Origin: a virus | Strand: one strand, 5' to 3' | DNA: 64,000 nt | IMG/VR virus record: IMGVR_UViG_3300027744_000013 | Span: 1 to 64,000 of that record | Shown here: positions 28,201 through 63,845 of the stretch, one piece after another | Layout: each line of letters begins with the position of its first letter | How positions within the stretch are numbered: the stretch's first letter is position 1 | Position numbers and translations under genes: made by a program | The notes under the pieces: generated by a model | The model's input: only the letters and a program-made list of their open reading frames with translations | Database searches by the model: none | What the model was told of the DNA's origin: nothing

Positions 28201-29324
28201 ATTATACCATTACAACAAGTACTAACTCGTTAGTTCCACATAATCCAGTAACAACTAATTTACAAACTTACTATCTTCAAGCATTTAACAGCATTCAGGT
28301 TACTGCATATTTTAACGTGGGACAAACTTATGCTCCTTATCAAATTAACGATAGTATTACTATATCAGGTAATCCGAACGTTCCACAAGTCAACGGTACT
28401 TGGGCTGTAACAGCATGTACCACATCATATGTACAGTTTAACGTGTCAGGTTCTCTTAACCTTAACGGTGGCTCAAACGGCTTTGTGGTAAACAATAATG
28501 CACTTAATACGGTGTCATTCTTTCTTAGCGGCTCCGCAGGATTAGGTGCAACAACTTTAAACATTACACAAGCAAGTTGGAATGCACTACCAATTGGTAC
28601 TCGAGTAGTGGGTAACACTGTTAATGACACTGCAAAATTCGTAGGCGGAACAACAATTTCAGCAATCAGTGCGGTAAGAACATTTGCAGGTACTGCTTAC
28701 TTCACGATAACATTTAATAGTGGATTGCTTGCGGCGCAACCTGCAGGGACATCGGTGACATTTAGTTTCACAGCATATTACGTCATAGGACTAAGCAGAA
28801 CGGCATCCAGTGCAATTGTTGCTAATGCTAGCGTAGCATTTACGCCTGCAGTTATTGCAACAAACACGTCATTCTTATATTTCACACAAGCATCATGGGA
28901 ATCACTAACATCGGGATACGGTGCTACAACCGGAACTGAAATTGTTGACCCGACTAAATTTTCGTCAGGTACAAAGATTGCTAGTATCGGTGCTCTAAGC
29001 TCGTTTGGTGGAACTGCATACTATCGTGTTAACTTTACACAAAGCTCAGTAACTTCTATTGCGGCTGCAAGTACAATTACATTCCAATTTGGTTTACCTG
29101 CTTATGCACAACCTGGTGAAACTGTATTCTCGTTCATTGCGGCTCCGGGCGGCGCACAAACATTGGACTTGGGTGAATTGAAAGAATTGACTAATACTAC
29201 CCTAGGTGGCAGAGGAACTTATCCAAACGGCCCAGACGTATTAGCCATTAACGTTTATCGTGCGTCAGGTGCTGGTAGTATTCCTACTAACATTGTTGTA
29301 CGTTGGGGTGAAGCGCAGGCTTAA
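22293..29324 (+). CDS. Giant virion structural protein (2343 aa)
   Basis: Two N-terminal KC.RDVGY..D...D..YGGN units, multiple G..Y..GD..TILG..LGG..P.NDL repeats, .HG....G..I.I beta domains and LYFTQASW repeats. Confidence 0.85.
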   Translation: MAKKRITNYVFQPGVSKSSNAYPNAHALLTVNKSFIQKEARAWISQQIILDSANNLYPDAVRLLTLNKQFILDEISAWTTAQVATANVTSVFFGYVYGATEIAKCKRDVGYLVDALAYDIRYGGNERVSFVASQYYLSGTIQVINAQVETAIQTKLWNLIQGFVMQKIVYSPTDQSPVTSTQVTTGDAGETAAVARAFVLSPMISNVINGGLSTIPATIYSVYNFPGYTYDSYKCERDVGYVIDGYLHDLQYGGNVKTRLISSRYWDGEYPQVDGDRSPEIATHTFIRDLINDYIFSQAAYTPLQITEPLQALPNNGEAGANARITTLAGIVVTVITNGLSSLPAIVNGVTSLKIQGYYTLDKILLITNSKTNQIIYNFSDPQLGATATFDAPHNSNGRDRDEDYPSYLQTTDTITVLDLEADTSTGSSTDDIQIFVEAEEQKTRPYDFGTDAIERMRVAQPQSMLDADFEYGLQPTKWQAIGVARGYPSVYEIPGTDTAVVSVTTDASTGTGGVGNSLITVTTQGPHGFTAGTPITIRALANTISGFSRAEGTFIIISVPTPATFTYYATAKVGTSNGQVLATSYSQLRKGAFYTGASIGTPTISVNSNGVNSSFTSKFITPITSDQIAVAATLPLLNVPLSGTGINAGTQVTGTVGPGGLAVTANISDPVSTGDTSITVVDATGVLEGMAIDNGTGTAIFVSTISSNTISFTQPLTANRGGASQSYTNKTGTNIVPGGTGALFDVDRVSGVYTNISISDPGLDYVDGSRLVILGSDLGGATPANDLTIKISSTINLDTFNGVVQNGTSGTGTGAEFDILLESGGAYDVTNIATAGLDYAVGDTITLLGTNLGGASPANNATVTVATVTRNYSSIAQDSTTGLGSTATFNISRTGALYTLTVSTKGVDYTPGDTVTILGTQLGGATPDNDLTFTVVDVDINNGINAFDTLTGIATGTGGIFGIASVTGICNFVGGLINTISVVSGTSISGERAYAAIIQDATSASGSGAIFDIETSGGIYDVVIVDPGLTYAFGDTITILGTQLGGLSPANDLELTVTSASSFGGGILAFNTAGVPSSVDDNFLTLTATAIAPGDGASFDISRAGGLYTSVVVNLPGTGYEINDRIELNGANFGGVSPTNNVTLTVTGVNVSDGSITTSTASGTAVSGSALEFWSAVALSEPTTASIPDATSLTTSAIATVQIAFASPHGLVPGANILVDISSAGTNHALAKGPFYVESVPSTTTLRYTARTTGNIDTGVALVGLVYARPDSYFIHRPYDGGVQLGTGGPQHGAQAIRMSKKYIRYQSGKGIMYTTGALFAPSYNLQSISADGTSVGAYITVTTDDVDHGCQVGGRIRIIGVDTAGYNGEYIISDVVTERQFKVQAYTTLANVYGSITTAAQMSIVGWHGATVRAGTFDDQNGMFWEYDGTELAVGKRSSTLQLSGISTINRDSNTLTGTNTRFRDQVKAGDRIVIKGMTHVVSGVQSQTLLTVTPDYRGAVNAVQSKVCLVQDLIIKQSNFNLDRLDGTGPSGYNLDISKMQMIGMQWSWYGAGFIDYMLRGADGNYVFAHRIRNSNTNTEAYMRTGNMPVRYEVINEGALGKLKSSITATQTTIPLIDANQFPNEAGTVYIDNELIQFGGKTSNTLINCVRSSPMVLFTGGAQRSFRAGLASVHEYNTGVILVSNTITPIISHWGSAMLTDGRFDEDRGYLFNYASTGIQVSTTKQTAFLIRLAPSVSNAIIGDLGERELINRAQLLLKSIAVTSDSGTGGLVVEGVLNPQNYPIDPAAISWSGLAGSSAGGQPSFAQVAPGGSVSWAGGATVTTSTATTTAALTGTASVPNSALFQSAIGSAVLYVTKASWETLGAAVGFSVAASETKYPSGTTVSSVTANPNPIATTLGVITGTATIPPSANFKTPAGSNQLFFTQASWNALQGAVGTAILSSDFAPGTVVSVVAGPALAAGQNYYTITTSTNSLVPHNPVTTNLQTYYLQAFNSIQVTAYFNVGQTYAPYQINDSITISGNPNVPQVNGTWAVTACTTSYVQFNVSGSLNLNGGSNGFVVNNNALNTVSFFLSGSAGLGATTLNITQASWNALPIGTRVVGNTVNDTAKFVGGTTISAISAVRTFAGTAYFTITFNSGLLAAQPAGTSVTFSFTAYYVIGLSRTASSAIVANASVAFTPAVIATNTSFLYFTQASWESLTSGYGATTGTEIVDPTKFSSGTKIASIGALSSFGGTAYYRVNFTQSSVTSIAAASTITFQFGLPAYAQPGETVFSFIAAPGGAQTLDLGELKELTNTTLGGRGTYPNGPDVLAINVYRASGAGSIPTNIVVRWGEAQA

Positions 29325-34590: not shown

Positions 34591-37500
34591 ATGGCTCAAT
34601 TAAGTTCACCAGGTGTAGCAGTTACGGTTGTAGACGAAAGTTTTTATACACCAGCGGCTCCCGGGACAACCCCTTTAATAGTAGTAACTAGTGCTGAGAA
34701 TAAAGCAAATGGTTCTGCAACTGGTACAGCACCTGCTACACTAAAAGCTAATGCAGGTAAAGTTTACCTACTAACAAGTCAGAAAGATTTAGCGGATAGC
34801 TTTGGTACTCCAATCTTTAAGACTGATAGTAATAATAACCCAATCCATGCAGGCGAACAAAACGAATATGGCCTACAAGCGGCTTACAGTTATTTAGGTG
34901 TAAGTAACCGTGCATTTGTTGTTCGTGCAGACATTGATCTATCACAATTAGATGCTAAGGCAATAGCACCTGCTGGTGAGCCAGCCGACGGCCAGTACTG
35001 GTTTGATACAGCAAATACTAAGTTTGGTATCTTCCAATGGAATGGCGCAGAGGCAACAACTGCAACAGGCCAAACATTTAGCAATTCAATTCCGCTAGTT
35101 ATTACTGACAGCACAAAAATTGCCGTTAATGATGCTCCAAAAGACAGCGTTGGTGCAGTAGGTGATTATGCAATTGTAGCAATTGCAGGCACTTATTCAT
35201 TATATTTTAAGAAAGCAAAGACCTTTACAGCCGCTGGTACTTGGGTAGCTGTTGGTTCTAACGCATGGGCCGCAAGCTGGCCAACTGTACAGGGTACAGT
35301 TGCAAGCCCAGTACTACTTGCAGGTGATGCACTAACAATGACAATTAGTGGAGCTCCGTATAGTTTTACTGGCCATACAAGTTTAACAACTCTAGTAGCA
35401 GACATTAATACAGCAATGGATGACAGCGACGGCGTAGGCACCGGCGACTTAGATAATCCAGTTGTACCTCCTGGTGTTTCTGCGGCAGTTATTAATAACC
35501 GTTTAGAAATTTATTCAACTGGAACTGCAATTGCTATTAGTGGAACATCTGCTAGTAAGATTGGTATTACTGTAGGCACTTACTATGCACCAGCATTAGA
35601 AATTAAACCTCATACACAGTTACCAACATACAAGCGCACAGATAATGCATCAGCGGTACAAGGTTACCCAACTGGCTCTTTATGGGTTAAAACAACTGAA
35701 CCTAACTTAGGTTCACGTTGGAGAATTAAAGTTTACAACGAAGCAACAGGTAGTTGGATTGAAAAATTTGCTCCATTGTATGCAAACAGCGCAGCCGCAT
35801 TAAAAGGACTTGATCCTACAGGTGGCGGCTTAAACTTAGTACAAGGCGCACTGTTTGTTAAAACTAATATTGCAGAAACACTTAATGCAGCCAATCGTCC
35901 AACAGATGCAAATTACAAAATTTATGCTCGTAAAACTTCCGGAGCAACAGAAATTGTTTCCGGTACTGCTGTAACATTTACTGCACAAGGCAGTAACTCG
36001 TTTACAATTAAAGAATCAGTTAAAGGTCAAACTGCTACTACCGACGCACTTACAGTAACATTTACTGGAAGTGAAGGAGTTGATGGCTTTTTAACACAGT
36101 TAACACAAAAATTAGCTGATGCAACATTTAACTCTTCACCATACACTTCTAAAATTACAGCTAGTAAAGCTGTTGTAACTGGTGAAGTGACTTTACGTCA
36201 CGCAGACGGCGGTGACATTTACTTTACACAAGGAACTGGAACTCCAATTGCAGATTTGTTTACTCCGTTTACTATTGACCCACTAACAATGGCTGGTTTA
36301 GGAACACCTAATTTTTACACAGATGCAGGCCCTGAACAATATGTAGCAACATTATGGAGCCCATACGCTGACATTACTGCCAGTGCAGATGCTCCAACAA
36401 CTGAAGCCGCTGACAATCAACTATGGTATAATTCAATGGTTGACGAAGTTGATATTTTAATTAACAACGGCTATACATGGGTTGGATATCGCTACCAAGC
36501 AGGTGCTGGCCTATCAAACTATAGTTCCCCTTACTACGCGGCATCAGACGATTCTAAAACAGATCCAGCTGGCCCGCTTGTTTCGGCAACTAAACCAAAG
36601 ACACAAAGTGATGGTACAAATTTAGTCACAGGTGACTTATGGGTTGATACTAGTGACTTGGAAAATTATCCTTCACTATACAAGTATAATAGTAATACCG
36701 GTAAATGGGCAATAGTTGATACTGGCGACCAGACTACAGAAGATGGCATTGTATTTTTTGATGCACGTTGGAATACTGACGGTGAAGCGGCAACTCCAAG
36801 TACAATTAAAGAATTATTAACAAGCGATTTCTTAGATTTTGATGCTCCTGATCCTGCATTATACCCAAGAGGTATGTTGCTATGGAACTTACGTAGAAGT
36901 GGATTTAATGTTAAGAAATTTGTACGTGATTATGTTGATACTAACACAGACAACGTTCGCCAAGATGGCGCACAAATGACCGATTACTATCCACATCGTT
37001 GGGTTACTGAATCAGGTAATCAAGAAAACGGCGCTGGCACATTTGGTCGTAAAGCACAACGTAAAGTTATTGTTCAAGCGTTGCAAGCCCTTGTTAACAG
37101 CAATCAATCACTACGTGATGAAGAAAGCAGAATATTTAACTTGTTAGCTTGTCCTGGATATCCAGAGTTAGTTGGCGAACTTGTATCGTTAAATTACGAT
37201 CGCGGTTTAACAGCATTTGTAGTTGGAGATACACCTGCACGTTTAACAGCAGATGCAACTAGTTTAAACAACTGGGGTAAAAACGTATCGGGCGCAGTTG
37301 AAGACAACGATGACGGTTTAGTATCAAGCGATGAATACTTAGGTGTGTTCTATCCATGGGGATTCACAAGTGATAATTTAGGTAACAACATTGTTGTACC
37401 GCCAAGCCACATGATGTTACGTACTATTGCATTAAATGATAATGTTAGCTATCCATGGTTTGCACCAGCAGGCACACGCCGTGGTGGAATTACTAACGCT

Positions 37501-37989
37501 ACCGCAGTTGGCTACGTTACAAGCGAAGGCGAATTCCAATCAGTTGCATTAAATAATGGACAACGTGATACATTAGCTGGTGTTAAAGTTAACCCAATTA
37601 CATTTATTACAGGAACAGGTCTTGTAAACTACGGACAATATACTCGTGCTAGAAGCGCAAGTGCATTAGATCGTATTAACGTAGCACGTTTAGTAATTTA
37701 TTTACGTCGTCAATTTGCACAGTTGGCTAAACCATATGTGTTTGAACCAAACGATAAAATTACTAGAGATGAATTGAAAGGTGCCGCAGAAAGCCTATTG
37801 TTAGAATTAGTAGGTCAACGTGCATTGTATGACTATATCGTAGTTTGCGATACATCAAACAACACACCATCAAGAATTGATCGTAACGAACTATACCTAG
37901 ACGTTGCAATTGAACCAGTGAAAGCAGTGGAATTTATTTACATTCCACTACGCTTGAAAAACACCGGCGAGATCAAAGGCCTAGCATAA
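34591..37989 (+). CDS. gp18: Contractile tail sheath protein (1132 aa)
   Basis: Starts L.SPGV.V...DES; C-terminal PWFAPAG..RG, NPI, SA.DRINV.RL, FEPND..TR, CD..NNTP..IDRNE...D.AI.P.K..EFI. Confidence 0.95.
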   Translation: MAQLSSPGVAVTVVDESFYTPAAPGTTPLIVVTSAENKANGSATGTAPATLKANAGKVYLLTSQKDLADSFGTPIFKTDSNNNPIHAGEQNEYGLQAAYSYLGVSNRAFVVRADIDLSQLDAKAIAPAGEPADGQYWFDTANTKFGIFQWNGAEATTATGQTFSNSIPLVITDSTKIAVNDAPKDSVGAVGDYAIVAIAGTYSLYFKKAKTFTAAGTWVAVGSNAWAASWPTVQGTVASPVLLAGDALTMTISGAPYSFTGHTSLTTLVADINTAMDDSDGVGTGDLDNPVVPPGVSAAVINNRLEIYSTGTAIAISGTSASKIGITVGTYYAPALEIKPHTQLPTYKRTDNASAVQGYPTGSLWVKTTEPNLGSRWRIKVYNEATGSWIEKFAPLYANSAAALKGLDPTGGGLNLVQGALFVKTNIAETLNAANRPTDANYKIYARKTSGATEIVSGTAVTFTAQGSNSFTIKESVKGQTATTDALTVTFTGSEGVDGFLTQLTQKLADATFNSSPYTSKITASKAVVTGEVTLRHADGGDIYFTQGTGTPIADLFTPFTIDPLTMAGLGTPNFYTDAGPEQYVATLWSPYADITASADAPTTEAADNQLWYNSMVDEVDILINNGYTWVGYRYQAGAGLSNYSSPYYAASDDSKTDPAGPLVSATKPKTQSDGTNLVTGDLWVDTSDLENYPSLYKYNSNTGKWAIVDTGDQTTEDGIVFFDARWNTDGEAATPSTIKELLTSDFLDFDAPDPALYPRGMLLWNLRRSGFNVKKFVRDYVDTNTDNVRQDGAQMTDYYPHRWVTESGNQENGAGTFGRKAQRKVIVQALQALVNSNQSLRDEESRIFNLLACPGYPELVGELVSLNYDRGLTAFVVGDTPARLTADATSLNNWGKNVSGAVEDNDDGLVSSDEYLGVFYPWGFTSDNLGNNIVVPPSHMMLRTIALNDNVSYPWFAPAGTRRGGITNATAVGYVTSEGEFQSVALNNGQRDTLAGVKVNPITFITGTGLVNYGQYTRARSASALDRINVARLVIYLRRQFAQLAKPYVFEPNDKITRDELKGAAESLLLELVGQRALYDYIVVCDTSNNTPSRIDRNELYLDVAIEPVKAVEFIYIPLRLKNTGEIKGLA

Positions 37990-52463: not shown

Positions 52464-52492
52464 TTGACCTTTGACAAATTACCATGTATACT
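52464..52492 (+). promoter_or_regulatory. Sigma70-like promoter, leaderless
   Basis: TTGACC-N17-TATACT-N6-ATG. Confidence 0.7.
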
Positions 52493-52498
52493 AGTAAT

Positions 52499-53680
52499 AT
52501 GACGACTATAGATAAACTTTTAATTAAAATTGTAAATCAATCGGATCCTTCAGTTGAAGAAGTTATACCAAAGAGAGATGCTAGGGTATTGCGTAGCCTA
52601 GCAACGGCAATTTTAACACCTGGATTTATCACAGAAAATCAAAGTAAACTACTAGTTAAGATTTTAACTGAACATACTGGTAAATTTGTGCAAAATTTAG
52701 ACGAACTTGTTGAGTCGTTAATAACACCAAGTTGGTCTAAACTTTTTAGAGAAGTTGATAAAACTAAAAAAATGTATATTTCATCGGCTGAGCCGTTACT
52801 TGTCATCGAATTTGCATTTTCTTCAATTATGCGGAAATCAGTAACATCTAGTGTTAAAAAAATCAGCGGTCTGGTACAGGTAGCAAGTGGCAAAGTATAC
52901 TCCGCCGACCTGACTGAAGAAAATATTGAAACACTGGTCGAACTACTACAACCAATGGGTTTTGAAATAGAGGAAAAAATCCTGGATTTTTACAAAATCA
53001 TAAAATCTTGGGAAAAAACTGAAGTTAAGAATCAGTTCTTATTAACTAACATTACGCACAGCAACTTTCAAAAACAAATTACGGCCGACTTGGGTATTAG
53101 TACTCCAATTGACGATAACGTCATTAGTGACCGAAGTACTAGGTACCAATATTTTCATGAAAAATCCGGAAAAAATCCGGAAAAATTGACCGAAATTTTA
53201 GCCTATCGAAATTCAACAAAGGTATGGGTTGATAGAAATAAATGGTCATTAGACGAAATTATTTTTAGCTTAACAGAGTTAAAACGATTGCCGGTGTTGG
53301 TTGTCTTTGATAATAACGATCCTAAAAAATGCCTGGCTGAGATGGCAATTTTACATGAAAGTTTAGAAAATAATTCAATATACGATAATGTTGGAATTTA
53401 TTTTAGATTACCAAACGACGAGGTCGGAAGTCAGTTTAATAAATTTATTAGTGAACATAGTTACAACTGTCAACTTGATAATACGACAAAAGTAGTTGGG
53501 GTGCAAAATGGAAAAATTCCGAAATTTTTCCTAAAAAATGAATGGCGGCCGATGAGTGTCATTTCTGTGGGAAATACGCTTCGCCAAACAAAAACATCAG
53601 TGTATGCAAACTTATGCGACTTAATAATTTCACACACTGACACACAACCAATTATTGAGACAAGGAACGTATGGGAGTAA
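52499..53680 (+). CDS. Hypothetical protein upstream of uvsW
   Basis: 393-aa ORF; the start at 52499 was chosen because the ATG at 52484 lies inside the promoter. Confidence 0.7.
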   Translation: MTTIDKLLIKIVNQSDPSVEEVIPKRDARVLRSLATAILTPGFITENQSKLLVKILTEHTGKFVQNLDELVESLITPSWSKLFREVDKTKKMYISSAEPLLVIEFAFSSIMRKSVTSSVKKISGLVQVASGKVYSADLTEENIETLVELLQPMGFEIEEKILDFYKIIKSWEKTEVKNQFLLTNITHSNFQKQITADLGISTPIDDNVISDRSTRYQYFHEKSGKNPEKLTEILAYRNSTKVWVDRNKWSLDEIIFSLTELKRLPVLVVFDNNDPKKCLAEMAILHESLENNSIYDNVGIYFRLPNDEVGSQFNKFISEHSYNCQLDNTTKVVGVQNGKIPKFFLKNEWRPMSVISVGNTLRQTKTSVYANLCDLIISHTDTQPIIETRNVWE

Positions 53681-55140
53681 AATTAGTTATACGAGATGAG
53701 GTTAATATTAAATTTGAGAATCTTCCATTAGATGCTCGAAAAAAATTAACTAATACATTTAAGTATGAAAATCCAACTGCACGTTATCAACCTGCGTACA
53801 AATTAGGACGTTGGGATGGTATGGTCAGTATGTTTGGTCTTGGTGGTAACGGCTATTTGAGCCAGCTAGAAAAGTGCCTAGAAATACTTGCAAGTTTACG
53901 TGTACATATCGAAGATGTCGAAGACTTGCGTACCACTGGTCAAATTGAATTTAAAGAAATTACAAATACTTACTGGGCAGACCAAGGTAAGGTATGGCCT
54001 AAAGGACATCGATTTGCAGGGCAACCTATTACATTACGTGATGACCAAGTTGAGGTTGTAAACCGATTTTTTACCAATACGCAAGCACTACAAGAAGTAG
54101 CAACTGGTGCTGGTAAAACTATTATGACAGCAACATTAAGTCACTGTGCTGAAAAATACGGACGTACTATTGTAATTGTTCCTAACAAAGATCTTGTTAC
54201 ACAAACAGAAGAAGATTATATTAATGTTGGACTTGATGTTGGAGTTTACTTTGGCGATCGAAAGGATCTAGGTAAGACTCATACTATCTGTACATGGCAA
54301 AGTCTCAATGTGTTAGATAAGAAAAGTAAGAACTGGGACTTAGAAAATGCAATAACATTGGCAGAGTTCCTTGACGGTGTTAAGACAGTAATTGTTGACG
54401 AAGTACATATGGCCAAAGCGGAAGTGTTGAAGAACTTGCTTACACAAAACCTAGCAAATGCACCTATTCGTTGGGGACTAACTGGCACTGTTCCTAAAGA
54501 TGATTTTGAAGCACAACCTATATATGCTAGCATAGGCCCAGTAGTTGGCGGCATTAAAGCTCACCAATTACAAGAGATGGGTGTGCTTAGTAACCTGCAT
54601 GTAAACATTGTGCAGATGATAGATTTACCAGAATTTAAATCATACGCAGAAGAATTAAAATATCTTGTTACTAGCCCCGAGCGATTAGCGTATATTGCAA
54701 AAATAGTTAAAGGCTTATCAGAAACAGGCAATACATTAGTTCTGGTTAACAGAATTGATTCAGGCAAGCAACTAATAGAATTACTCGATGATGCTGTTTT
54801 TATTTCAGGCGAAGTAAAAGGCACAAAGAGGACCGAGGAGTACAAAGAACATGCAACAAATGATAACAAGATTACTGTGGCGACTTTTGGTGTGGCCTCT
54901 GTTGGTATTAATATCCCAAGGATTTTTAATCTGGTTCTTCTTGAACCCGGAAAGAGCTTTGTCCGTGTTATACAAAGCATTGGGCGAGGCATTAGAAAAG
55001 CAGAAGACAAAGACTTCGTACAAATCTGGGACATAACCAGTACTTGTAAGTATGCAAAACGGCACCTTACAGCGAGAAAGAAATTTTACAAGGATGCCAA
55101 GTATCCGTTTACTATTACTAAAACGGACTGGCAAAAATAA
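53671..55140 (+). CDS. uvsW: SF2 DNA helicase
   Basis: ATGAGKT, DEVH, GLTGT, S.GINIP, QSIGRGIR. Confidence 0.93.
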   Translation: MGVKLVIRDEVNIKFENLPLDARKKLTNTFKYENPTARYQPAYKLGRWDGMVSMFGLGGNGYLSQLEKCLEILASLRVHIEDVEDLRTTGQIEFKEITNTYWADQGKVWPKGHRFAGQPITLRDDQVEVVNRFFTNTQALQEVATGAGKTIMTATLSHCAEKYGRTIVIVPNKDLVTQTEEDYINVGLDVGVYFGDRKDLGKTHTICTWQSLNVLDKKSKNWDLENAITLAEFLDGVKTVIVDEVHMAKAEVLKNLLTQNLANAPIRWGLTGTVPKDDFEAQPIYASIGPVVGGIKAHQLQEMGVLSNLHVNIVQMIDLPEFKSYAEELKYLVTSPERLAYIAKIVKGLSETGNTLVLVNRIDSGKQLIELLDDAVFISGEVKGTKRTEEYKEHATNDNKITVATFGVASVGINIPRIFNLVLLEPGKSFVRVIQSIGRGIRKAEDKDFVQIWDITSTCKYAKRHLTARKKFYKDAKYPFTITKTDWQK

Positions 55141-55147
55141 AGGAATT

Positions 55148-55654
55148 ATGCAAATATTAACATTAGATAACAAGACTTTTTCATTAAACAATCTACCCGA
55201 CGAGGTAGATGATAGTACTAGATTTGCAGTTCTAGATAACAGTGACCCTAAAGAACCCGATTTCTTTTTTATGCCGTTAATCTTTCTTGAGAGTTTTAAT
55301 GCACCTGCCATGGTATTAAGGATTGGCGAAGATGAAGTAACAATGCCCATTGATTGGTGTATTGCAGTGGGTGATAGTAGCTGTGCTACTGACATTGAAA
55401 TTCTACCTTTAACTAGTTTAAATGACAGAGGATTTGAAGCACTGGTGTTTAATCCGTTGAGCTCGTTTAGGGTAGAGTTTAAGAAGATCGAAATTGTAAA
55501 TTTTTATAACGATGTTAAATGGTATTTTCCAAAGATGAAAAATGGACAACTATTAGCAGTACCGACTCGCTTTAAAGAACAACCAGATTGTGCTTATTTT
55601 GTAAAAGAAATTAGCAGACAAAGTGAGATAATTCAGTTAGATAAAATTCTATAA
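55148..55654 (+). CDS. Hypothetical protein, possibly a degenerate Hint fold
   Basis: AAGGA RBS before MQILTLD; beta-strand pattern resembles intein blocks (see findings). Confidence 0.6.
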   Translation: MQILTLDNKTFSLNNLPDEVDDSTRFAVLDNSDPKEPDFFFMPLIFLESFNAPAMVLRIGEDEVTMPIDWCIAVGDSSCATDIEILPLTSLNDRGFEALVFNPLSSFRVEFKKIEIVNFYNDVKWYFPKMKNGQLLAVPTRFKEQPDCAYFVKEISRQSEIIQLDKIL

Positions 55655-56244
55655 TGTTTAAAGATATTGTCATCATTAACGATGCTATTCCAGTAGCCCA
55701 GCAAATAGAACTTGAAACTTTATTTACTGGGCCTACTATCCCATGGAGCCTAGTGCCGCCTGGCGAAGAGCATAATTCAACAAGCCTATCCACTAAAGAC
55801 TCAGTTGATTATACTCAATTTGTACACTTAGTATTCTGGGATGAACACAGCATTGTATCTCCATCGTTCCCATTAATGGTTCCTATACTTTCTGCAATGC
55901 CTATCAATATCAAACAGTTACTTAGAATCAAAGCCAACGTTACATTGTCAAATAAAAATCGTCCATTGGATAGCTATGGCATGCCACATGTTGATTTTAC
56001 TCCGCCGGTAAAAGGACTTGTGACAGCAATATACTATATTAATGACAGTGATGGCGATACTGTAATGTTTAATCAACTTGGCGATAAGTTATTGCCAATT
56101 CAAACAATTACTCCAAAACGGGGACGCTTGGTAATGTTTAATGGTTCTCGTTATCATTCGGGTAATTGTCCAACCGGTGATAAGCCACGAGCTCTATTGA
56201 ACATTAATTTTTTACCAGTAAAGGAATATAATGGGATCACTTAA
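55654..56244 (+). CDS. 2OG-Fe(II) oxygenase
   Basis: PHVD...YYINDSDGDT...PK.GR.V.F.G..YH....R. Confidence 0.85.
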   Translation: MFKDIVIINDAIPVAQQIELETLFTGPTIPWSLVPPGEEHNSTSLSTKDSVDYTQFVHLVFWDEHSIVSPSFPLMVPILSAMPINIKQLLRIKANVTLSNKNRPLDSYGMPHVDFTPPVKGLVTAIYYINDSDGDTVMFNQLGDKLLPIQTITPKRGRLVMFNGSRYHSGNCPTGDKPRALLNINFLPVKEYNGIT

Positions 56245-56521
56245 ACCTGGCGCAACATACATATATGAGCGTGACAGAGAAACAGTCTACGCTCGAGAAT
56301 TTGGTGCAGACCCAAGTACTAGACAAGTAGTCGGATGGGATTATGATAAAGAACATCCAAAGTTTGATCCTCGGACCAATGATGGCAGACCGTTACTTGA
56401 TCATATAATGGACAGCAAAATGTGGGGCGAAATTCGGCGAGAAGCACGTACCAATGTGACTTTACAAAAGGCTCTGGATCGTGTTATAATGATATACAAA
56501 TTAAGCAAGGACAAAATATAA
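56231..56521 (+). CDS. Hypothetical protein
   Basis: 96 aa, AAGGA RBS, translationally coupled on both sides. Confidence 0.65.
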   Translation: MGSLKPGATYIYERDRETVYAREFGADPSTRQVVGWDYDKEHPKFDPRTNDGRPLLDHIMDSKMWGEIRREARTNVTLQKALDRVIMIYKLSKDKI

Positions 56522-57174
56522 TGGCTTTACATATTGCATATTTTCAACCAACAATTTTTGCAATTGACACAGTTGCGCCGGTTGAATTTAGTAGAATTTT
56601 TAACTTAACTGAACAGTTACATGCGCATCCAGAGTTAGATGATGCATCCAATCCGTATACTAGTGTTCGTGGAGGACAGCAAATACAAGTATACCCAAAC
56701 GATCTTAACATTGATACTAGTTGGCTTGTTGCATACTTAGAAACAATGTGTAAAGGCTACATGGAAATTGTTTCTAAACAGAGTACAACAAAAGATTTAG
56801 ACATGTGTAGACCCGTTGTTACTAGCATTTGGACTATTAGACAATCCCAAGGACAGTATCAAGAATTGCACAGTCATCCAGGTGGAAATCTAAGCGGAAA
56901 CATTTATATCACTGCACCCGAGCTTACATTAGATAGTAATCCAAGTGACTCACAAATTGCATTTAGAATGCCGCAAACAAGAGACGTTACTAAATTTATG
57001 ATGTCAGATATATGGAAGTACAGCCCAACTCCAGGTTCGATTGTTCTGTTCCCAAGCCATATACCACATACCGTTTATCCGTGGAAAGGTATGGGATATC
57101 GTACTGTGTTAGCGTTTGATGCTAGATTAGTTCCTAAAGACGAAGTGTTAGAAACAGAGCAACCAAATGAGTGA
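56521..57174 (+). CDS. Putative 2OG-Fe(II) oxygenase, HxH type
   Basis: W......G.YQ..H.H....SG..Y; P..G...LFPS..PH.V.P....R...AF. Confidence 0.8.
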   Translation: MALHIAYFQPTIFAIDTVAPVEFSRIFNLTEQLHAHPELDDASNPYTSVRGGQQIQVYPNDLNIDTSWLVAYLETMCKGYMEIVSKQSTTKDLDMCRPVVTSIWTIRQSQGQYQELHSHPGGNLSGNIYITAPELTLDSNPSDSQIAFRMPQTRDVTKFMMSDIWKYSPTPGSIVLFPSHIPHTVYPWKGMGYRTVLAFDARLVPKDEVLETEQPNE

Positions 57175-57649
57175 AAAAATTGAATTAAAAGAGAAACTGT
57201 CGGCTGTTGATCAAAATGTCCGCGAGCTGTGGGACGCTATGGATGCAGACCAGCAGAAATCTCTTAAGAACGAATATTTTATTCTTAATCGTTATATTAG
57301 CAACGTGCAAGGACAAAAGCGTGAAATTCAAGAACACTTTGTACTAACTGTCAATGAGTATTTTAATAAGAACTGGAATCTTTTACAGAAGCATCCTAAA
57401 CTTATGTGGCTACTGTTGTGTATGTGTAGTCATAACGGAGAGACTGTATACTTCCATCAATGGTTAGGAAATAAAAAGAAAGATGCCGCAAATAGCAACA
57501 AGCGAGTTAAATTCTTAGCTGAAATTTATCCTAATAAAAAAATGGATGAGGTTGAAATGCTGGCTCAGCTAACTACAGATAAAGAGATGAAGGCCCTTGC
57601 TAAAACATACGGCATGGATGATGCAACGATCGCAAAGAAATTTAAATGA
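57167..57649 (+). CDS. Hypothetical protein, possibly clamp-loader small subunit (gp62-like)
   Basis: F.LNRY.S...VNE..N...W...KK...Y pattern, size and replication context; weak. Confidence 0.4.
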   Translation: MSEKIELKEKLSAVDQNVRELWDAMDADQQKSLKNEYFILNRYISNVQGQKREIQEHFVLTVNEYFNKNWNLLQKHPKLMWLLLCMCSHNGETVYFHQWLGNKKKDAANSNKRVKFLAEIYPNKKMDEVEMLAQLTTDKEMKALAKTYGMDDATIAKKFK

Positions 57650-58338
57650 TGGCTGTGGAAGAACAAACGTATACTTGTCAGTATTGTAGTAATAAATTTA
57701 CTAAAGAAAAAACGTTAGCTGTGCATGTATGCGAGCAAAAACGCAGGGCACTGGCTAAGACTGAAAGACATGTTGTTCTTGGATACGATACATATAACAA
57801 ATTTTATAGGATGAGTCAAAACTCTAAAGTTGACAAGACCTATGACGAGTTTGCTCATAGTTCGTATTATAATTCGTTTGTTAAGTTTGGTAGTTTTGTC
57901 TCTAATGTTAATCCGTTATATCCAGACAAGTTTATAAATTATGTAGTGACTAGTGGTGTTAAATTAGATCACTGGTGTAGAGATGAATTGTATGAAAAAT
58001 ACGTTCTACACTTGATTAAAACAGAACCGGTTGAAGTTGCACTAGAGCGTAGTATTAGTCATATGCTAACCTGGGCAGAAGACCAAGGAAGTGTATGGAA
58101 TCATTATTTTTTATATGTTAGTCTAAGCAGAGCTACGTACGACATCAAAGATGGTAAAATTAGTCCTTGGCTTGTACTAAATTCAGCAAATGGTAAATCA
58201 ATGCTGAAGAAGATGGGTGATGATCAGCTATCTGCAATAAGTAATATTATAGACTTGCAATTTTGGCTTAATAAGTTTAAGCAAAAGTCGGCAGATGCTG
58301 ATTTAGTCAAGCAAGTTGTTAAGGAATCTAACATATGA
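57646..58338 (+). CDS. Hypothetical protein with an N-terminal Zn finger
   Basis: C..C...F..E..L..H.C. Confidence 0.7.
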   Translation: MMAVEEQTYTCQYCSNKFTKEKTLAVHVCEQKRRALAKTERHVVLGYDTYNKFYRMSQNSKVDKTYDEFAHSSYYNSFVKFGSFVSNVNPLYPDKFINYVVTSGVKLDHWCRDELYEKYVLHLIKTEPVEVALERSISHMLTWAEDQGSVWNHYFLYVSLSRATYDIKDGKISPWLVLNSANGKSMLKKMGDDQLSAISNIIDLQFWLNKFKQKSADADLVKQVVKESNI

Positions 58339-58526
58339 AAACGAATCATGTAAGTCCTAATCCAGATGCATTACAGCTTGAATTGCAAGTAATCGTGTCA
58401 GAAGAAGATAATTCGGTTTACGTAAAGTTTATAGGATTTGATACTATTGAAGAAGCTGACAAGTATGCCGACCACTTAACAGAACACTTACCTTTATTAC
58501 TTTTTGAATCAGAGATAAAACACTAA
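58335..58526 (+). CDS. Small hypothetical protein
   Basis: 63 aa, coupled on both sides. Confidence 0.55.
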   Translation: MKTNHVSPNPDALQLELQVIVSEEDNSVYVKFIGFDTIEEADKYADHLTEHLPLLLFESEIKH

Positions 58527-59104
58527 TGCCAGATATTGATATTGACTTTGCAGACAGAACAACCGCACTTAAAGTGTTTAAGAATGTCACGGCTGCAATC
58601 AGCGACAACGGAACTTTTAAAAAGCACAATACTGGAATATATTGTACTGCGATCCCGTACAATCCAATTACAGGAATAAGTACGATAGAGTATAAACAAG
58701 CAGAAGAACGAGGTTATTTTAAGTTAGACTTTTTAAATGTTAGTGTCTATGAAGGTGTAAAAGATAGGACACATTTACTCAAGTTAATGGAGACTGAACC
58801 GTTATGGGATCTACTGGAGCAAGACGACTTTACCCAACTACTATTCCATGTGAATGGGCATGGGTCTATTCTGAGACAAAGCAAGCCAAAGTCTATAGAG
58901 CAATTGGCCGCAGTACTGGCGATGATCAGACCCGCGAAACGTTATCTGATTGGGAAAGATTGGACTACGGTGATGAACGAAGTGTGGACGAAACCCGAGA
59001 ATAATGAGTATTACTTTAAAAAAGCACATGCTATTGCTTACGCACATGTGGTGGTAGTGCAGATGAATCTAATCTGTGAAAGTATAAGCTACGAGTTTAG
59101 TTAA
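58526..59104 (+). CDS. dnaE: Miniature DNA polymerase III alpha (DnaE)-like catalytic fragment
   Basis: MPDIDIDF, HNTGIY, G.FKLDFL, P.SIEQLA.VLAMIRP, Y.FKKAHA.AYA. Confidence 0.85.
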   Translation: MPDIDIDFADRTTALKVFKNVTAAISDNGTFKKHNTGIYCTAIPYNPITGISTIEYKQAEERGYFKLDFLNVSVYEGVKDRTHLLKLMETEPLWDLLEQDDFTQLLFHVNGHGSILRQSKPKSIEQLAAVLAMIRPAKRYLIGKDWTTVMNEVWTKPENNEYYFKKAHAIAYAHVVVVQMNLICESISYEFS

Positions 59105-59475
59105 CGAGTTTTTCGCACTAACTGTACTGATTTACGCTTTACACGCTTGAGTGTTAGATTCATCAAATTAACAACTGGACCTAGTATTACTCTAACATCC
59201 TTACTGTTAAAAGTTTTAACAGCATAAGCAAAGGGTAGTATTTGATCACGACAAATAATGCTAATTGGAAATTGTCTGTTTGATTCCCACCACCAAGTTT
59301 CTCCTATTTCTAAAAATAGGGTTTTTTCTTCTGGGGACTTTATTGCATTTAAATCGTAGAAGCTAGTAACAAATTGGTCTTGATTAATAATTATACCAAC
59401 GTATTCTTCTTCGCCGTAGTTTAATACGCTGATAAAGGGTAATTGTTGTTCGATGTTGTCTCTTAGTTTTGCCAT
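59101..59475 (-). CDS. Hypothetical protein
   Basis: 124-aa minus-strand ORF filling the gap; contains WWWESNR..PI. Confidence 0.7.
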   Translation of the reverse strand: MAKLRDNIEQQLPFISVLNYGEEEYVGIIINQDQFVTSFYDLNAIKSPEEKTLFLEIGETWWWESNRQFPISIICRDQILPFAYAVKTFNSKDVRVILGPVVNLMNLTLKRVKRKSVQLVRKTR

Positions 59476-60350: not shown

Positions 60351-61364
60351 ATGAGTCTCATAGCCGATACATTACTACAACACTTACCCGGTAAACGAAA
60401 ACAGACCCCAAGCGGCTGGATAAGTTTCAATGCCCCGTGTTGTGATGACAAACGCCAACGTGGCGGCTTTATTATCAATGGCGGCGATGCAGTATCTTAC
60501 CATTGTTTCAATTGCGGATTTAAAGCAAGCTGGCAACCTGGTAGAACTATTAGTCAAAAAATGAGTAAACTAATGCGTGACCTTAATATGGGTGACGATA
60601 CAATTAGCCAACTTAGATTAGAAGCCCTTAGACTAAATGACAACTCGAATACGGTAATAACAAGTGTTATTCCAAAGTTTGAAACAAGAGCATTGCCACT
60701 GGATGCTATTAGTTTTGAAGAGTTAGATACATTCTTAAAACTTCCAGATGGTGACTATGCTGTTCCAACAAAATTTACCGAAGCAGTTGGATACTTGGTA
60801 GAAAGAAAGATTGATCCGTTTGCTTATCCGTTTTATTGGGCTAACAAAATAGGATTCAACAGCAGACTTATTATTCCGTTTTTATTCAAAGGTGTCATTG
60901 TTGGATGGACTGCCCGTGCTTTCAATGATGCTAAACCCAAGTATCTAAGTGAACAGCAACCTGGTTATGTGTTTAACTTAGACCGTCAAACTAATGAAAG
61001 AAATTTCGTAATTGTTAGTGAAGGGCCGTTTGATGCACTAAGTATTGATGGGTGTGCTTTATTAGGTGCTGAGATTAAAGACAGCCAGAACTGGTTACTA
61101 AAACAGCTGGGCAAAGAAATTGTGCTAGTACCAGATAGAGACCATGAAGGCCCACGGACTGTTGAACAAGCATTAGAGTTCGGCTGGAGTGTAAGCATGC
61201 CAGATTGGCCTGAAGATGTCAAAGATATAAACGATGCAGTGGTTAAGCTGGGCAAACTTGCCACACTATGGCTTATAACTAACGCAAAAGAATCAAATAG
61301 TCTTAAGATTCAACTTAGGGCAAAGAAGTGGTTTCCAAAGGATCAAAATGAAAAAAATAATTGA
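60351..61364 (+). CDS. gp61: DNA primase
   Basis: Zn-binding N-terminus (PCC...YHCFNCG), R.IIP...G..AR, PKYL, Toprim EG.FDA...D.D, KD.ND. Confidence 0.92.
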   Translation: MSLIADTLLQHLPGKRKQTPSGWISFNAPCCDDKRQRGGFIINGGDAVSYHCFNCGFKASWQPGRTISQKMSKLMRDLNMGDDTISQLRLEALRLNDNSNTVITSVIPKFETRALPLDAISFEELDTFLKLPDGDYAVPTKFTEAVGYLVERKIDPFAYPFYWANKIGFNSRLIIPFLFKGVIVGWTARAFNDAKPKYLSEQQPGYVFNLDRQTNERNFVIVSEGPFDALSIDGCALLGAEIKDSQNWLLKQLGKEIVLVPDRDHEGPRTVEQALEFGWSVSMPDWPEDVKDINDAVVKLGKLATLWLITNAKESNSLKIQLRAKKWFPKDQNEKNN

Positions 61365-61461
61365 CTTTCTATTAACTCCCTGGACATGGTACCAGGATCG
61401 CCGTGCGTTTAAAAAACGCCTAAAAGAATTACGCAAACGTGACCCGTTTATTTACAAATGA
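61348..61461 (+). CDS. 37-aa basic peptide (MKKIIDFLLTPWTWYQDRRAFKKRLKELRKRDPFIYK), below the ORF-track cut-off
   Basis: AAGGA RBS; fills the primase-to-carbamoyltransferase gap with an ATGA overlap. Confidence 0.7.
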   Translation: MKKIIDFLLTPWTWYQDRRAFKKRLKELRKRDPFIYK

Positions 61462-62396
61462 TACTTTGGGGCGTCAACGCATTAAATCACGGGCATAGTA
61501 TTGCTGTCTTTAAGGACGGCCAATTTGTCGATAACTATACTGGCACAAGCGATCAACTTGAAAGTGAAACCACTTTGAAATCGCTAGCACCAGGAAGTCC
61601 TGACAGGATATTTTGGTATGAAAATCCTTGGTTAAAGAAAGCTAGACAACTGTATGCTGGCCAATACAGTACAGCAATGAAGATAAGTGTACTGCCAAAA
61701 CGCTACATGCGATCATATCGATATGCTCCAATTACCTATACTGCCCACCACGCTAGTCATGCGGCGGCAGGATACTACACTAGCCCATTCAACCATTGCG
61801 CCATTGTTGTACTGGATGCCATTGGCGAGTTTGAGTGTGCTACTATTTGGCAAGGCCAGCACGGTGAAATGCGTAAGGTATGGAGTCGTTGGTATCCAAA
61901 TAGTCTTGGATTGTTCTATAGTGCATTTACACAACTAGTGGGATTAACACCTATACGTGATGAGTATTTGTTGACTCAAATGGCTGAACAAGGCGATGCC
62001 AGTGTGTACTATCAAGACGTTATGGGTTATATGGCGGGAATAGTTGAAGCCAAACAAAACATGCACAGGGGCATTAACAATTGGCCCCATGTGATTAGCA
62101 ACATACAAGATCAATGTAATATTGCCGCGGCAGTACAGCAAATATTCCAGAATCAAGTTGCACAAGTTATGGACACGGCCCTTGAGCTAACCAATGCCGA
62201 TTGCCTAGTTTACATGGGCGGATGTGCTATGAACAAGAGTGCCAACACCAATGTGGTTGAGCCCCGATTCAAGCACATATGGTCATTGCCCAATCCTGGT
62301 GACCCTAGCAGTTCAATTGGTGCTGTCACATATCATACTAAACAGCGAGTCTGGCGCACATGGGATCCAGTCAAACATATTGCTATCAACGTTTAA
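61458..62396 (+). CDS. Carbamoyltransferase N-terminal (Kae1-like) domain only
   Basis: HH.SHAAAGYY.SPF, V.DAIGE, P.SLGLFYSAFT..VG, EY....A..G, IAAAVQ, GGCAMN..AN, P.PGD..SSIGA; stops before the YrdC-like domain. Confidence 0.85.
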   Translation: MILWGVNALNHGHSIAVFKDGQFVDNYTGTSDQLESETTLKSLAPGSPDRIFWYENPWLKKARQLYAGQYSTAMKISVLPKRYMRSYRYAPITYTAHHASHAAAGYYTSPFNHCAIVVLDAIGEFECATIWQGQHGEMRKVWSRWYPNSLGLFYSAFTQLVGLTPIRDEYLLTQMAEQGDASVYYQDVMGYMAGIVEAKQNMHRGINNWPHVISNIQDQCNIAAAVQQIFQNQVAQVMDTALELTNADCLVYMGGCAMNKSANTNVVEPRFKHIWSLPNPGDPSSSIGAVTYHTKQRVWRTWDPVKHIAINV

Positions 62397-62414: not shown

Positions 62415-63845
62415 ATGAAACAAAATACAGACTACGGCTACGACATACAAAAACTATATTTAGAAATGATGCTGGCTGATGCGGCCACATTTGTACGTTG
62501 CCAATCAATCTTTGATCACACACTATTTGATCGCAAGCTACAGATGTCCGCGGAATTTATGAACACTTATGTTGAAGAACATAATGTCATGCCCACAATT
62601 GACATTGTCAATGCGGCCACTGATGCCAGCTTCAAACCCGCAGAGAATCTACGTGAAGAACACTTTGATTGGTTACTGGCAGACTTTGAAACATTCATCC
62701 GCCATAAAGGTCTTGAGAAAGCTATTCTAGCTTCAGCTGACCTGTTGGAAAAAGGTGAGTACGGCCCAGTAGAAGAATTGGTCAAGAAGGCAGTGCAAGT
62801 TGGATTGCAAAAGGACATGGGCACTGATTACTTTCTAGATCCCCGTGCTCGATTGCTCAAGATCAAAGACAAGAACGGACAGTTGAGCACTGGCTGGAAG
62901 AGTGTAGATGACAAACTGTTTGGTGGTATGAACCGCGGAGAGTTGAATATCTTTGCAGGTGGCTCGGGCGCAGGCAAGAGTTTGTTTCTGGCTAACTTGG
63001 GTTGTAATTGGGCATTGCAGGGTTTGAATGTGGTGTACTTGACATTAGAACTTAGTGAAGAACTAGTGTCAATGCGTGTTGACAGCATGTTAACAGGGAT
63101 CCCGACTAGAGAGATTTTTAAACATCTAGATGATGTCGAGATGAAGGTGAAAGTGATTGGCAAAAAGTCGGGCACCTTCCAAGTCAAGTATATGCCGTCT
63201 GGGAAGACCGCAAATGACTTGCGATCATACTTGAAAGAATATGAAATCAAGACTGATCGTAAAGTAGATGTACTATTAGTAGACTACTTGGACTTGCTCA
63301 TGCCAATCTCAAAGAAGATTAGCCCCGCAGACTTGTTTATCAAGGACAAGTATGTGTCAGAAGAATTACGTAACCTAGCAGTGGAAAAGAACTGTATATT
63401 TGTCACAGCCGCACAGTTGAACCGTGGTGCTGTTGAAGAAGTTGAGTTTGATCACAGTCATATCTCAGGTGGACTTAGCAAGATCCAAACTGCGGATAAT
63501 GTGTTTGGTATCTTCACATCAAGGGCAATGCGTGAACGTGGACGTTATCAAATACAACTGATGAAAACACGTAGTAGCAGTGGTGTGGGCATGAAAATTG
63601 ATCTGGAGTTCAATGTGGACAGTTTGCGTATCAGCGACTGTGAACAAGAAGACTCATATGGCAACAGTACCAGCGCCAGTGCAGGTTCAAGTTTGTTGGC
63701 ATCAATCAAGAATCGTCAAACAGTTGATCCTGCTACAGGTGAATTGGATCCCAACAGTCTAGTGCCCATACCCAAAGTACGTGCCCAAGTTGAAAGTAGT
63801 AAACTACGTGAACTGTTGAATAATCTTCCTAGTGATGACGTATAA
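62415..63845 (+). CDS. gp41: Replicative DnaB-like helicase
   Basis: GGSGAGKS, TLELSE, VDYLDL, EELR.LA, TAAQLNR, TAD, MKTR. Confidence 0.95.
   Translation: MKQNTDYGYDIQKLYLEMMLADAATFVRCQSIFDHTLFDRKLQMSAEFMNTYVEEHNVMPTIDIVNAATDASFKPAENLREEHFDWLLADFETFIRHKGLEKAILASADLLEKGEYGPVEELVKKAVQVGLQKDMGTDYFLDPRARLLKIKDKNGQLSTGWKSVDDKLFGGMNRGELNIFAGGSGAGKSLFLANLGCNWALQGLNVVYLTLELSEELVSMRVDSMLTGIPTREIFKHLDDVEMKVKVIGKKSGTFQVKYMPSGKTANDLRSYLKEYEIKTDRKVDVLLVDYLDLLMPISKKISPADLFIKDKYVSEELRNLAVEKNCIFVTAAQLNRGAVEEVEFDHSHISGGLSKIQTADNVFGIFTSRAMRERGRYQIQLMKTRSSSGVGMKIDLEFNVDSLRISDCEQEDSYGNSTSASAGSSLLASIKNRQTVDPATGELDPNSLVPIPKVRAQVESSKLRELLNNLPSDDV

Follow-up and report, generated by a model that had tools for sequence, protein, structure and literature searches.

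Polymerases of the C family are bacterial replicases of about 1100 aa. In cyanobacteria the protein is divided, and DnaE-N and DnaE-C are joined by protein trans-splicing; the position of that split differs from the one found in phages. For jumbo phages of group 2.2, a split minimal Pol III alpha has been predicted from sequence, and the part of that study drawn on here proposes for it either a joint action with the family B enzyme or a role in repair (Iyer, Anantharaman, Krishnan, Burroughs and Aravind, 2021, Viruses 13:63; PMC7824862). A truncated Pol III alpha is also noted in the genome papers on CBB and Atu_ph07. The literature yielded only these three reports, and experimental work on the split enzyme was not found in it.

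The DNA analyzed here (the window) comprises 64,000 nucleotides, positions 1 to 64,000 of IMG/VR record IMGVR_UViG_3300027744_000013. The record is a fragment of 108,086 bp from an uncultured freshwater giant phage and is estimated to be 29% complete. The window encodes a 192-aa protein, the C-unit, which is a further copy of the split kind already predicted in 2021 and so adds no new principle. With a probability of roughly 85%, the C-unit is the metal- and template-binding half of a two-gene minimal Pol III alpha of the kind encoded by group 2.2 jumbo phages (RaK2/Atu_ph07/PA5oct-like). A separately encoded N-unit would provide the other half of a heterodimer whose assembly, polymerase activity and biological role are predicted.

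The C-unit gene and its neighborhood

The C-unit gene lies among replication and recombination genes, of which the following are relevant here:

53671..55140, plus strand: UvsW-like helicase (phrog_16, E 2e-71; synteny with RaK2)
57646..58338, plus strand: conserved upstream neighbor, 230 aa (phrog_11058, E 4.6e-60)
58335..58526, plus strand: 63-aa ORF, variable accessory gene (TAA stop overlaps the C-unit ATG)
58526..59104, plus strand: probable C-unit of a split minimal Pol III alpha, phrog_11778 (PHROG match, profile, AlphaFold2 model, dN/dS)
59101..59475, minus strand: convergent conserved neighbor, 124 aa, with no assigned function (phrog_11637, E 6e-31)
60351..61364, plus strand: gp61-like DNA primase (phrog_47, E 1e-46; synteny with RaK2, Phosso and Atu_ph07)
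62415..63845, plus strand: gp41/DnaB-like replicative helicase (PF03796, E 5e-18; phrog_19, E 2e-66)

The C-unit ORF is intact in the ORF list of the window. An in-frame stop is found 7 codons 5′ of its ATG, and ATG, GTG and TTG are absent between the two; the C-unit therefore cannot begin before MPDIDIDF. The list and this upstream stop bear out the observation, made in an earlier note on this DNA, that an intact reading frame opens exactly at the catalytic motif.

At the junction TAATG, the TAA of the 63-aa upstream ORF overlaps the C-unit ATG. This small ORF has no Pfam or PHROG match and is found in only a subset of the close relatives. In relatives that lack it, either the phrog_11058 gene or a different small ORF adjoins the C-unit, again through a TAATG junction. 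Overlaps of the TAATG type occur at the C-unit start in 48 of 79 relatives, and the identity of the upstream gene varies. Translational coupling to the upstream neighbor, as the earlier note described it, is thus real as far as the overlap goes but does not single out a specific partner: the C-unit is coupled with whichever gene stands upstream. The 230-aa phrog_11058 protein carries a C2H2-like CxxC...HxxxC arrangement at its N-terminus. On the 3′ side, an opposite-strand gene of similar size to the convergent neighbor is also present in Phosso, Atu_ph07 and RaK2.

The block to which the gene belongs contains homologs of gp32, UvsX, UvsY and UvsW, two 2OG-Fe(II) oxygenases and the C-unit. It continues 3′ of the C-unit with a virion-type protein, the gp61 primase, a carbamoyltransferase and the gp41/DnaB helicase. 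RaK2, Phosso and Atu_ph07 have in common the order UvsW ... C-unit, convergent small gene, virion protein, primase and helicase. The oxygenase-like genes (55654-56244 and 56521-57174, plus strand; phrog_274/61 and phrog_81) are located between UvsW and the C-unit block. The NodU/CmcH-like carbamoyltransferase gene (61458-62396, plus strand; phrog_1601) lies between the gp61 and gp41 genes, which are adjacent to each other in RaK2. Directly 5′ of UvsW, a 398-aa ORF (52484-53680, plus strand) has no Pfam or PHROG match, and RaK2 carries a DnaQ-like ‘DNA polymerase exonuclease subunit’ at this position. The window also contains very long plus-strand ORFs at 1922-10996 (3024 aa), 22293-29324 (2343 aa) and 34591-37989 (1132 aa).

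Homology, active site and selection

Homology to C-family polymerases is evident from several profile comparisons. The phrog_11778 family (‘DNA polymerase’) matches C-unit residues 3-186 at E 1.9e-66, over profile positions 8-194 of 197, and phrog_405, the full-length DnaE family, gives a local match at positions 578-678 (E 9e-9). When a profile of 85 sequences is compared with the PDB, only Pol III alpha chains match (E. coli 2hnh, Taq and M. tuberculosis; E 6e-6 to 1e-4), and E. coli 2hnh is the best of them at E 6e-6. Pfam hmmscan of the C-unit returns only PF17657, a fingers match that, at 13.2 bits, falls short of the cut-off of 22. At the C-unit locus PF07733 scores 16.7 bits, against a gathering score of 23.9, and reaches this value only by reading through the stop. 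The upstream read-through was taken as chance, the DNA there encoding the variable 63-aa ORF in another frame.

The family is both widespread and uniform in length. Using tblastn, the C-unit gene is detected at 31-52% identity in 96 isolate phage genomes, all from jumbo myoviruses of the RaK2/121Q/GAP32/CBB, PA5oct, XacN1 and Atu_ph07/Phosso groups. HMMER, run exhaustively on 1.84 billion representatives, recovered 420 clusters with E <= 0.001, of which almost every one measures 180-220 aa, and a word-indexed search of public data retrieved at least 8000 C-unit protein clusters.

Four motifs can be placed on the gene by alignment with E. coli Pol III alpha:

58529..58549, plus strand: PDIDIDF, with catalytic D3 and D5 (E. 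coli D401/D403) and D7 (conservation in 85 representatives)
58721..58735, plus strand: K66-L-D68-F-L, third catalytic Asp and conserved Lys (E. coli K553/D555); K66 and D68 invariant
58925..58933, plus strand: I134-R135-P136, fingers motif (E. coli F638-R639-P640); P136 invariant
59009..59044, plus strand: Y162-Y-F-K-K-A-H-A-I-A-Y-A173, fingers motif (E. coli Y754-GFNKSHSAAYA), from the alignment

Among 85 aligned representatives (30-57% identity), D3, D5, K66, D68 and P136 are invariant, and D7, H34, G37, I134, R135, K165, H168 and A173 are conserved in at least 90%. The PDIDIDF segment aligns to PDFDVDF of E. coli Pol III alpha, and the C-unit MPDIDIDF is identical to that of M. tuberculosis DnaE1. 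K66-L-D68-F-L aligns to K553-F-D555-F-L, which lies within VKFDFLGL of 2hnh. Further along, P121.S...LA...R135-P136 aligns to E. coli P..FEDMIALVALFR639-P640, and Y163-F-K-K-A-H168-A-I-A-Y-A to Y754-G-F-N-K-S-H760-S-A-A-Y-A, which pairs F164 with F756. In E. coli alpha, the catalytic residues are D401, D403 and D555; the D401/D403 numbering agrees with the range of the structural alignment. Every motif first read from the sequence, including H..G (H34/G37), is therefore present and in the E. coli Pol III alpha order. The C-unit ends 24 residues past H168, and the C-terminal tails of the family are variable, with no shared motif and no clamp-binding tail found among them.

An AlphaFold2 (AF2) model of the C-unit has a mean pLDDT of 96.6. 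Its top 18 PDB matches in Foldseek are all C-family polymerases, as are the top 15 in VIA-align (Pol III alpha/PolC), after which the score drops to Z 3.2. The best VIA match is Taq Pol III alpha 461-841 (Z 9.9, rmsd 3.7, 188 residues aligned), and the alignment to E. coli alpha 400-784 (Z 8.8-8.9) spans model residues 1-190. From these spans it follows that about 190 residues replace about 380. The heavy deletion of the regions between the motifs, described in the earlier note, is thus apparent in the structural alignment: the thumb has been lost, together with much of the fingers. The aligned part runs no further than E. coli residue ~781-784 and leaves out the canonical C-terminal modules.

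A protein some six times shorter than DnaE, whose Pfam matches all fall below threshold, might be taken for the decayed remnant of a full-length phage DnaE (a pseudogene) or for an assembly artefact, and both doubts had been raised in the earlier note. Nei-Gojobori dN/dS values against the window copy range from 0.06 to 0.19, with a median of 0.11 (n=48 informative pairs), and the catalytic residues are invariant. At this median the C-unit gene is not a pseudogene; the comparison across relatives that the note had proposed reveals purifying selection, and relaxed selection is ruled out by these values together with the intact reading frames. An intact ORF of 186-194 aa starting M[PA]DxDxD is present at 78 of 80 IMG/VR loci, whose proteins are 69-100% identical, and the same architecture recurs in the 96 isolate genomes, alongside the thousands of clusters mentioned above. 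A second IMG/VR contig carries an identical C-unit ORF, and near-identical sequence is present in 14 or more DNA runs from freshwater or lakes, produced by many studies between 2017 and 2025. In one freshwater DNA run the gene is covered free of any difference or indel; in other public runs two variants fall inside the ORF, one synonymous and one I170V. The second contig, the intact loci and the indel-free run exclude an artefact of assembly, and decay or misassembly can for practical purposes be dismissed as the origin of this gene. RNA-library contigs from three studies also cover the C-unit gene; carry-over of DNA is possible, and expression is therefore not claimed.

The N-unit in relatives and natural fusions

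The palm half that the C-unit lacks is encoded by a separate gene in related phages. All three isolate jumbo phages RaK2, Atu_ph07 and Phosso possess a GRGS-containing N-unit gene of 172-177 aa, and of five large contigs with a C-unit at 72-81% identity to that of the window, four encode a 166-168-aa N-unit. N-units (166-185 aa overall) form the family phrog_11127, match PF07733 above the gathering score over positions ~10-95 (~18-98 in the isolates), and are distantly recognized by phrog_405 (E 5e-12, positions 366-429). With PF07733 and the Phosso N-unit protein as queries, the 108-kb record itself shows neither another PF07733 match besides the C-unit nor an N-unit homolog. The earlier note had envisaged an intein-free split polymerase with its GRGS partner elsewhere, and the separate N-unit of the relatives supports this; the small GRGS ORF it proposed to look for is missing from the record but present in these isolates and in most of the large relatives.

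The distance between the two genes accounts for this absence. In close relatives the N-unit and C-unit genes are 160-185 kb apart, and in G004, a contig in the orientation of the window, ~159 kb separate the C-unit from the N-unit gene on its upstream side. Since the window gene is located at 58.5 kb, the lack of a partner so far off from a 108-kb fragment is to be expected. To judge from the relatives, the window phage probably has an N-unit of its own, missing from the record owing to the incompleteness of the fragment. In all relatives examined for it (L095-L098, L012-L014), the N-unit gene is followed by one for a basic protein of ~110-150 aa and then by a GroES-like (Cpn10) gene.

The boundary between the two proteins is precise. 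The isolate N-units terminate as ...GVGRGSSVxSY...LDFxEFLN, that is, at the residue before PDxDxD in DnaE. All 80 of the IMG/VR N-units stop right after L[DN]xxEF[LMI][RK], immediately before the C-unit start point. With the N-unit ending in EF[LMI][RK] and the C-unit opening with MPD, there is no extra sequence and no room for intein halves. The split point is thus fixed and intein halves are absent, so that assembly of the N-unit and C-unit would have to be non-covalent.

Three independent natural proteins carry both units in one chain: P0223 (375 aa) and P0272 and P0273 (376 aa each), the latter two 78-81% identical to P0223. In each, a complete N-unit is followed by a linker of 10 residues and a complete C-unit. 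Residues 190-370 of P0223 are the part that matches the C-unit in the HMMER search, and the PF07733 match runs unbroken across the N/C junction of the fused proteins. P0272 and P0273 come from ENA and Logan; P0223 was not found in IMG/VR, where an alignment-based scan gave split N-units only. In a FastTree phylogeny of 99 C-unit sequences, the fused forms make up one clade (support 1.0) nested within a clade of stand-alone C-units (support 0.998), and fusion therefore looks secondary. Subject to midpoint rooting and the shortness of the contigs, this position points to an old split and a later re-fusion.

P0223 also offers a view of the two units together. Its AF2 model was built on 11 aligned sequences and has a pLDDT of 79.9 overall, about 90 over residues 80-375 and low confidence over the first ~75 residues; the MAFFT alignment behind it misplaces the final 7 residues of every N-unit. 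Over residues 78-375 the model superimposes on Taq alpha 292-830 (287 residues, rmsd 3.0, Z 21.7) and on E. coli alpha 274-773 (Z 15.9). As modeled, the N-unit and C-unit would together constitute the palm, a vestigial thumb and the proximal fingers. P0271, at 550 aa the sole longer C-unit homolog, was considered as a PHP-fused form and rejected, as it looks like a chimeric contig. It is represented by one member on one contig, in which a bacterial DnaQ exonuclease and the PHP N-part of DnaE are followed by GRG, and its last 33 residues share 88% identity with the C-terminal end of the window C-unit.

The C-unit could conceivably act as a self-sufficient miniature nucleotidyltransferase, to which the N-unit is unrelated or dispensable. 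All three metal-binding Asp residues are in this one protein, its lone model is as confident as noted above, and its gene is far from the N-unit gene. However, the C-unit has neither the GRGS loop nor the first elements of the palm; both are on the N-unit, which stops precisely before the C-unit start at every one of the 80 loci and co-occurs with it in the isolates and in four of five large contigs. Natural N-C fusions exist, and the fused model has a contiguous palm and more than twice the score of the C-unit alone (Z 21.7 vs 9.9). Self-sufficiency is accordingly very improbable. The ‘minimal polymerase’ of the earlier note is likewise a name that fails for the 192-aa protein alone, because the GRGS half of the palm is missing; it suits the two-gene enzyme better, of which the C-unit would be one part.

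A possible second polymerase and its relation to known enzymes

Relatives with the split enzyme also carry a T4-type replicase. A family B polymerase is encoded by RaK2, Atu_ph07, Phosso and three of four large relatives, and in close relatives it lies ~22-26 kb from the N-unit gene. In the 108-kb record (~29% complete) neither PF00136 (PolB) nor PF00929 (DnaQ) finds a match, and PF02811 (PHP domain) finds none in the four large relatives. A search for gp43, as the earlier note had advised, thus draws a blank in the record itself and succeeds in the isolates and most of the large relatives, and gp43 appears not to have been replaced by the split enzyme; a PHP gene, which the note also listed, is missing from those four large relatives. 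The family B polymerase of Atu_ph07 is distributed over two adjacent ORFs (578 + 418 aa), while that of RaK2 and Phosso is one ORF of ~1000 aa.

These observations can be assembled into a tentative mechanism. The C-unit would supply the second half of the palm, with D3, D5, D68 and K66, as well as the vestigial thumb and the proximal fingers with the RP and FKKxH motifs. The N-unit (~170 aa), from its separate gene, would supply the first palm half with the GRGS triphosphate-binding loop. The two would associate non-covalently and free of inteins into a heterodimer of ~360 aa, corresponding to E. coli alpha ~274-781 and devoid of the PHP, HhH, clamp-binding and OB modules. This enzyme would presumably work beside the T4-type family B polymerase and not instead of it. 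Its likely activity is templated DNA synthesis of short patches at low processivity, either in primer extension with hand-off at the fork or in repair. Primer extension and hand-off are a reasonable guess because the position of the gene beside primase and helicase is conserved.

Templated, primer-dependent synthesis is not guaranteed, because the thumb, HhH and clamp-binding elements are missing and the tails are unconserved; the enzyme may catalyze another nucleotidyl-transfer reaction instead. One such proposal is that the N+C heterodimer is a non-replicative nucleotidyltransferase of the Pol-beta superfamily, active in untemplated tailing, nucleotide-signal synthesis or phage-host conflict. 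The absence of the thumb and of the HhH, clamp-binding and OB modules agrees with this, as does the complete family B replicase of the relatives. CCA-adding enzymes, TUTases and MenT-type nucleotidyltransferases are moreover the next matches of the P0223 model below the C family, at Z 3-4. These scores (max 4.2) are nevertheless far below the Z 21.7 of Pol III alpha/PolC, the C-family-specific fingers motifs (RP, FKKxH) are retained and conserved, and the gene belongs clade-wide to a replication/recombination block running from UvsW to primase-helicase. A non-replicative enzyme is therefore improbable, if somewhat less so than a self-sufficient C-unit.

That the two-piece enzyme, or its 375-aa form, is an active template-dependent second polymerase beside the family B replicase is a proposition held at slightly less than even odds. 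If it is correct, this would be by far the smallest C-family polymerase, and would serve in primer extension before hand-off or in gap filling. A conserved core of ~360 aa spread over two genes is in any case strongly selected and very abundant in freshwater phages and in isolate jumbo phages, and would define the minimal catalytic module of the C family. Why phages that own a complete family B replisome retain a split C-family core is a puzzle. The precise, invariant split point, the single-chain fusions, which can be expressed directly, and the high-confidence models are aids to testing.

The closest known counterpart is the group 2.2 system (PHROG 11778), which the window copy resembles in family, length, motifs, start at PDxDxD and synteny. 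As in that system, its relatives have a distant GRGS N-unit (PHROG 11127) and a co-occurring family B polymerase. The window copy differs in coming from an uncultured freshwater phage, in sharing only 37-52% identity with the versions of isolate phages and in presumably having its N-unit outside the fragment. Neither the 375-aa fusions nor the dN/dS values and AF2 models of this analysis occur in the part of the 2021 study drawn on here (PMC7824862; Iyer et al., 2021).

Bacterial DnaE/Pol III alpha (2hnh; 2hpi/3e0d; 5lew) and PolC (3f2b) share with the phage protein the Pol-beta-like palm with three Asp and a Lys and the same order of fingers motifs, and they align structurally over nearly the whole C-unit. 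In contrast to bacterial DnaE, the split enzyme is without the PHP domain, the distal fingers, HhH, the clamp-binding motif, the OB fold and the tau-binding tail; its thumb is almost gone, and its palm is divided over two polypeptides. Like the split-intein DnaE of cyanobacteria, the phage system derives a C-family polymerase from two distant genes. The phage split, however, falls inside the palm, between FLR/N and PDxDxD, and intein halves are absent. Full-length phage DnaE (PHROG 405), found in Bacillus and Streptomyces phages and in phage G (group 3.2), is distantly similar to both units. Each of them is a single polypeptide of ~1100-1200 aa that includes a PHP domain and acts as the replicase of its phage, whereas the split core stands beside a family B replicase.
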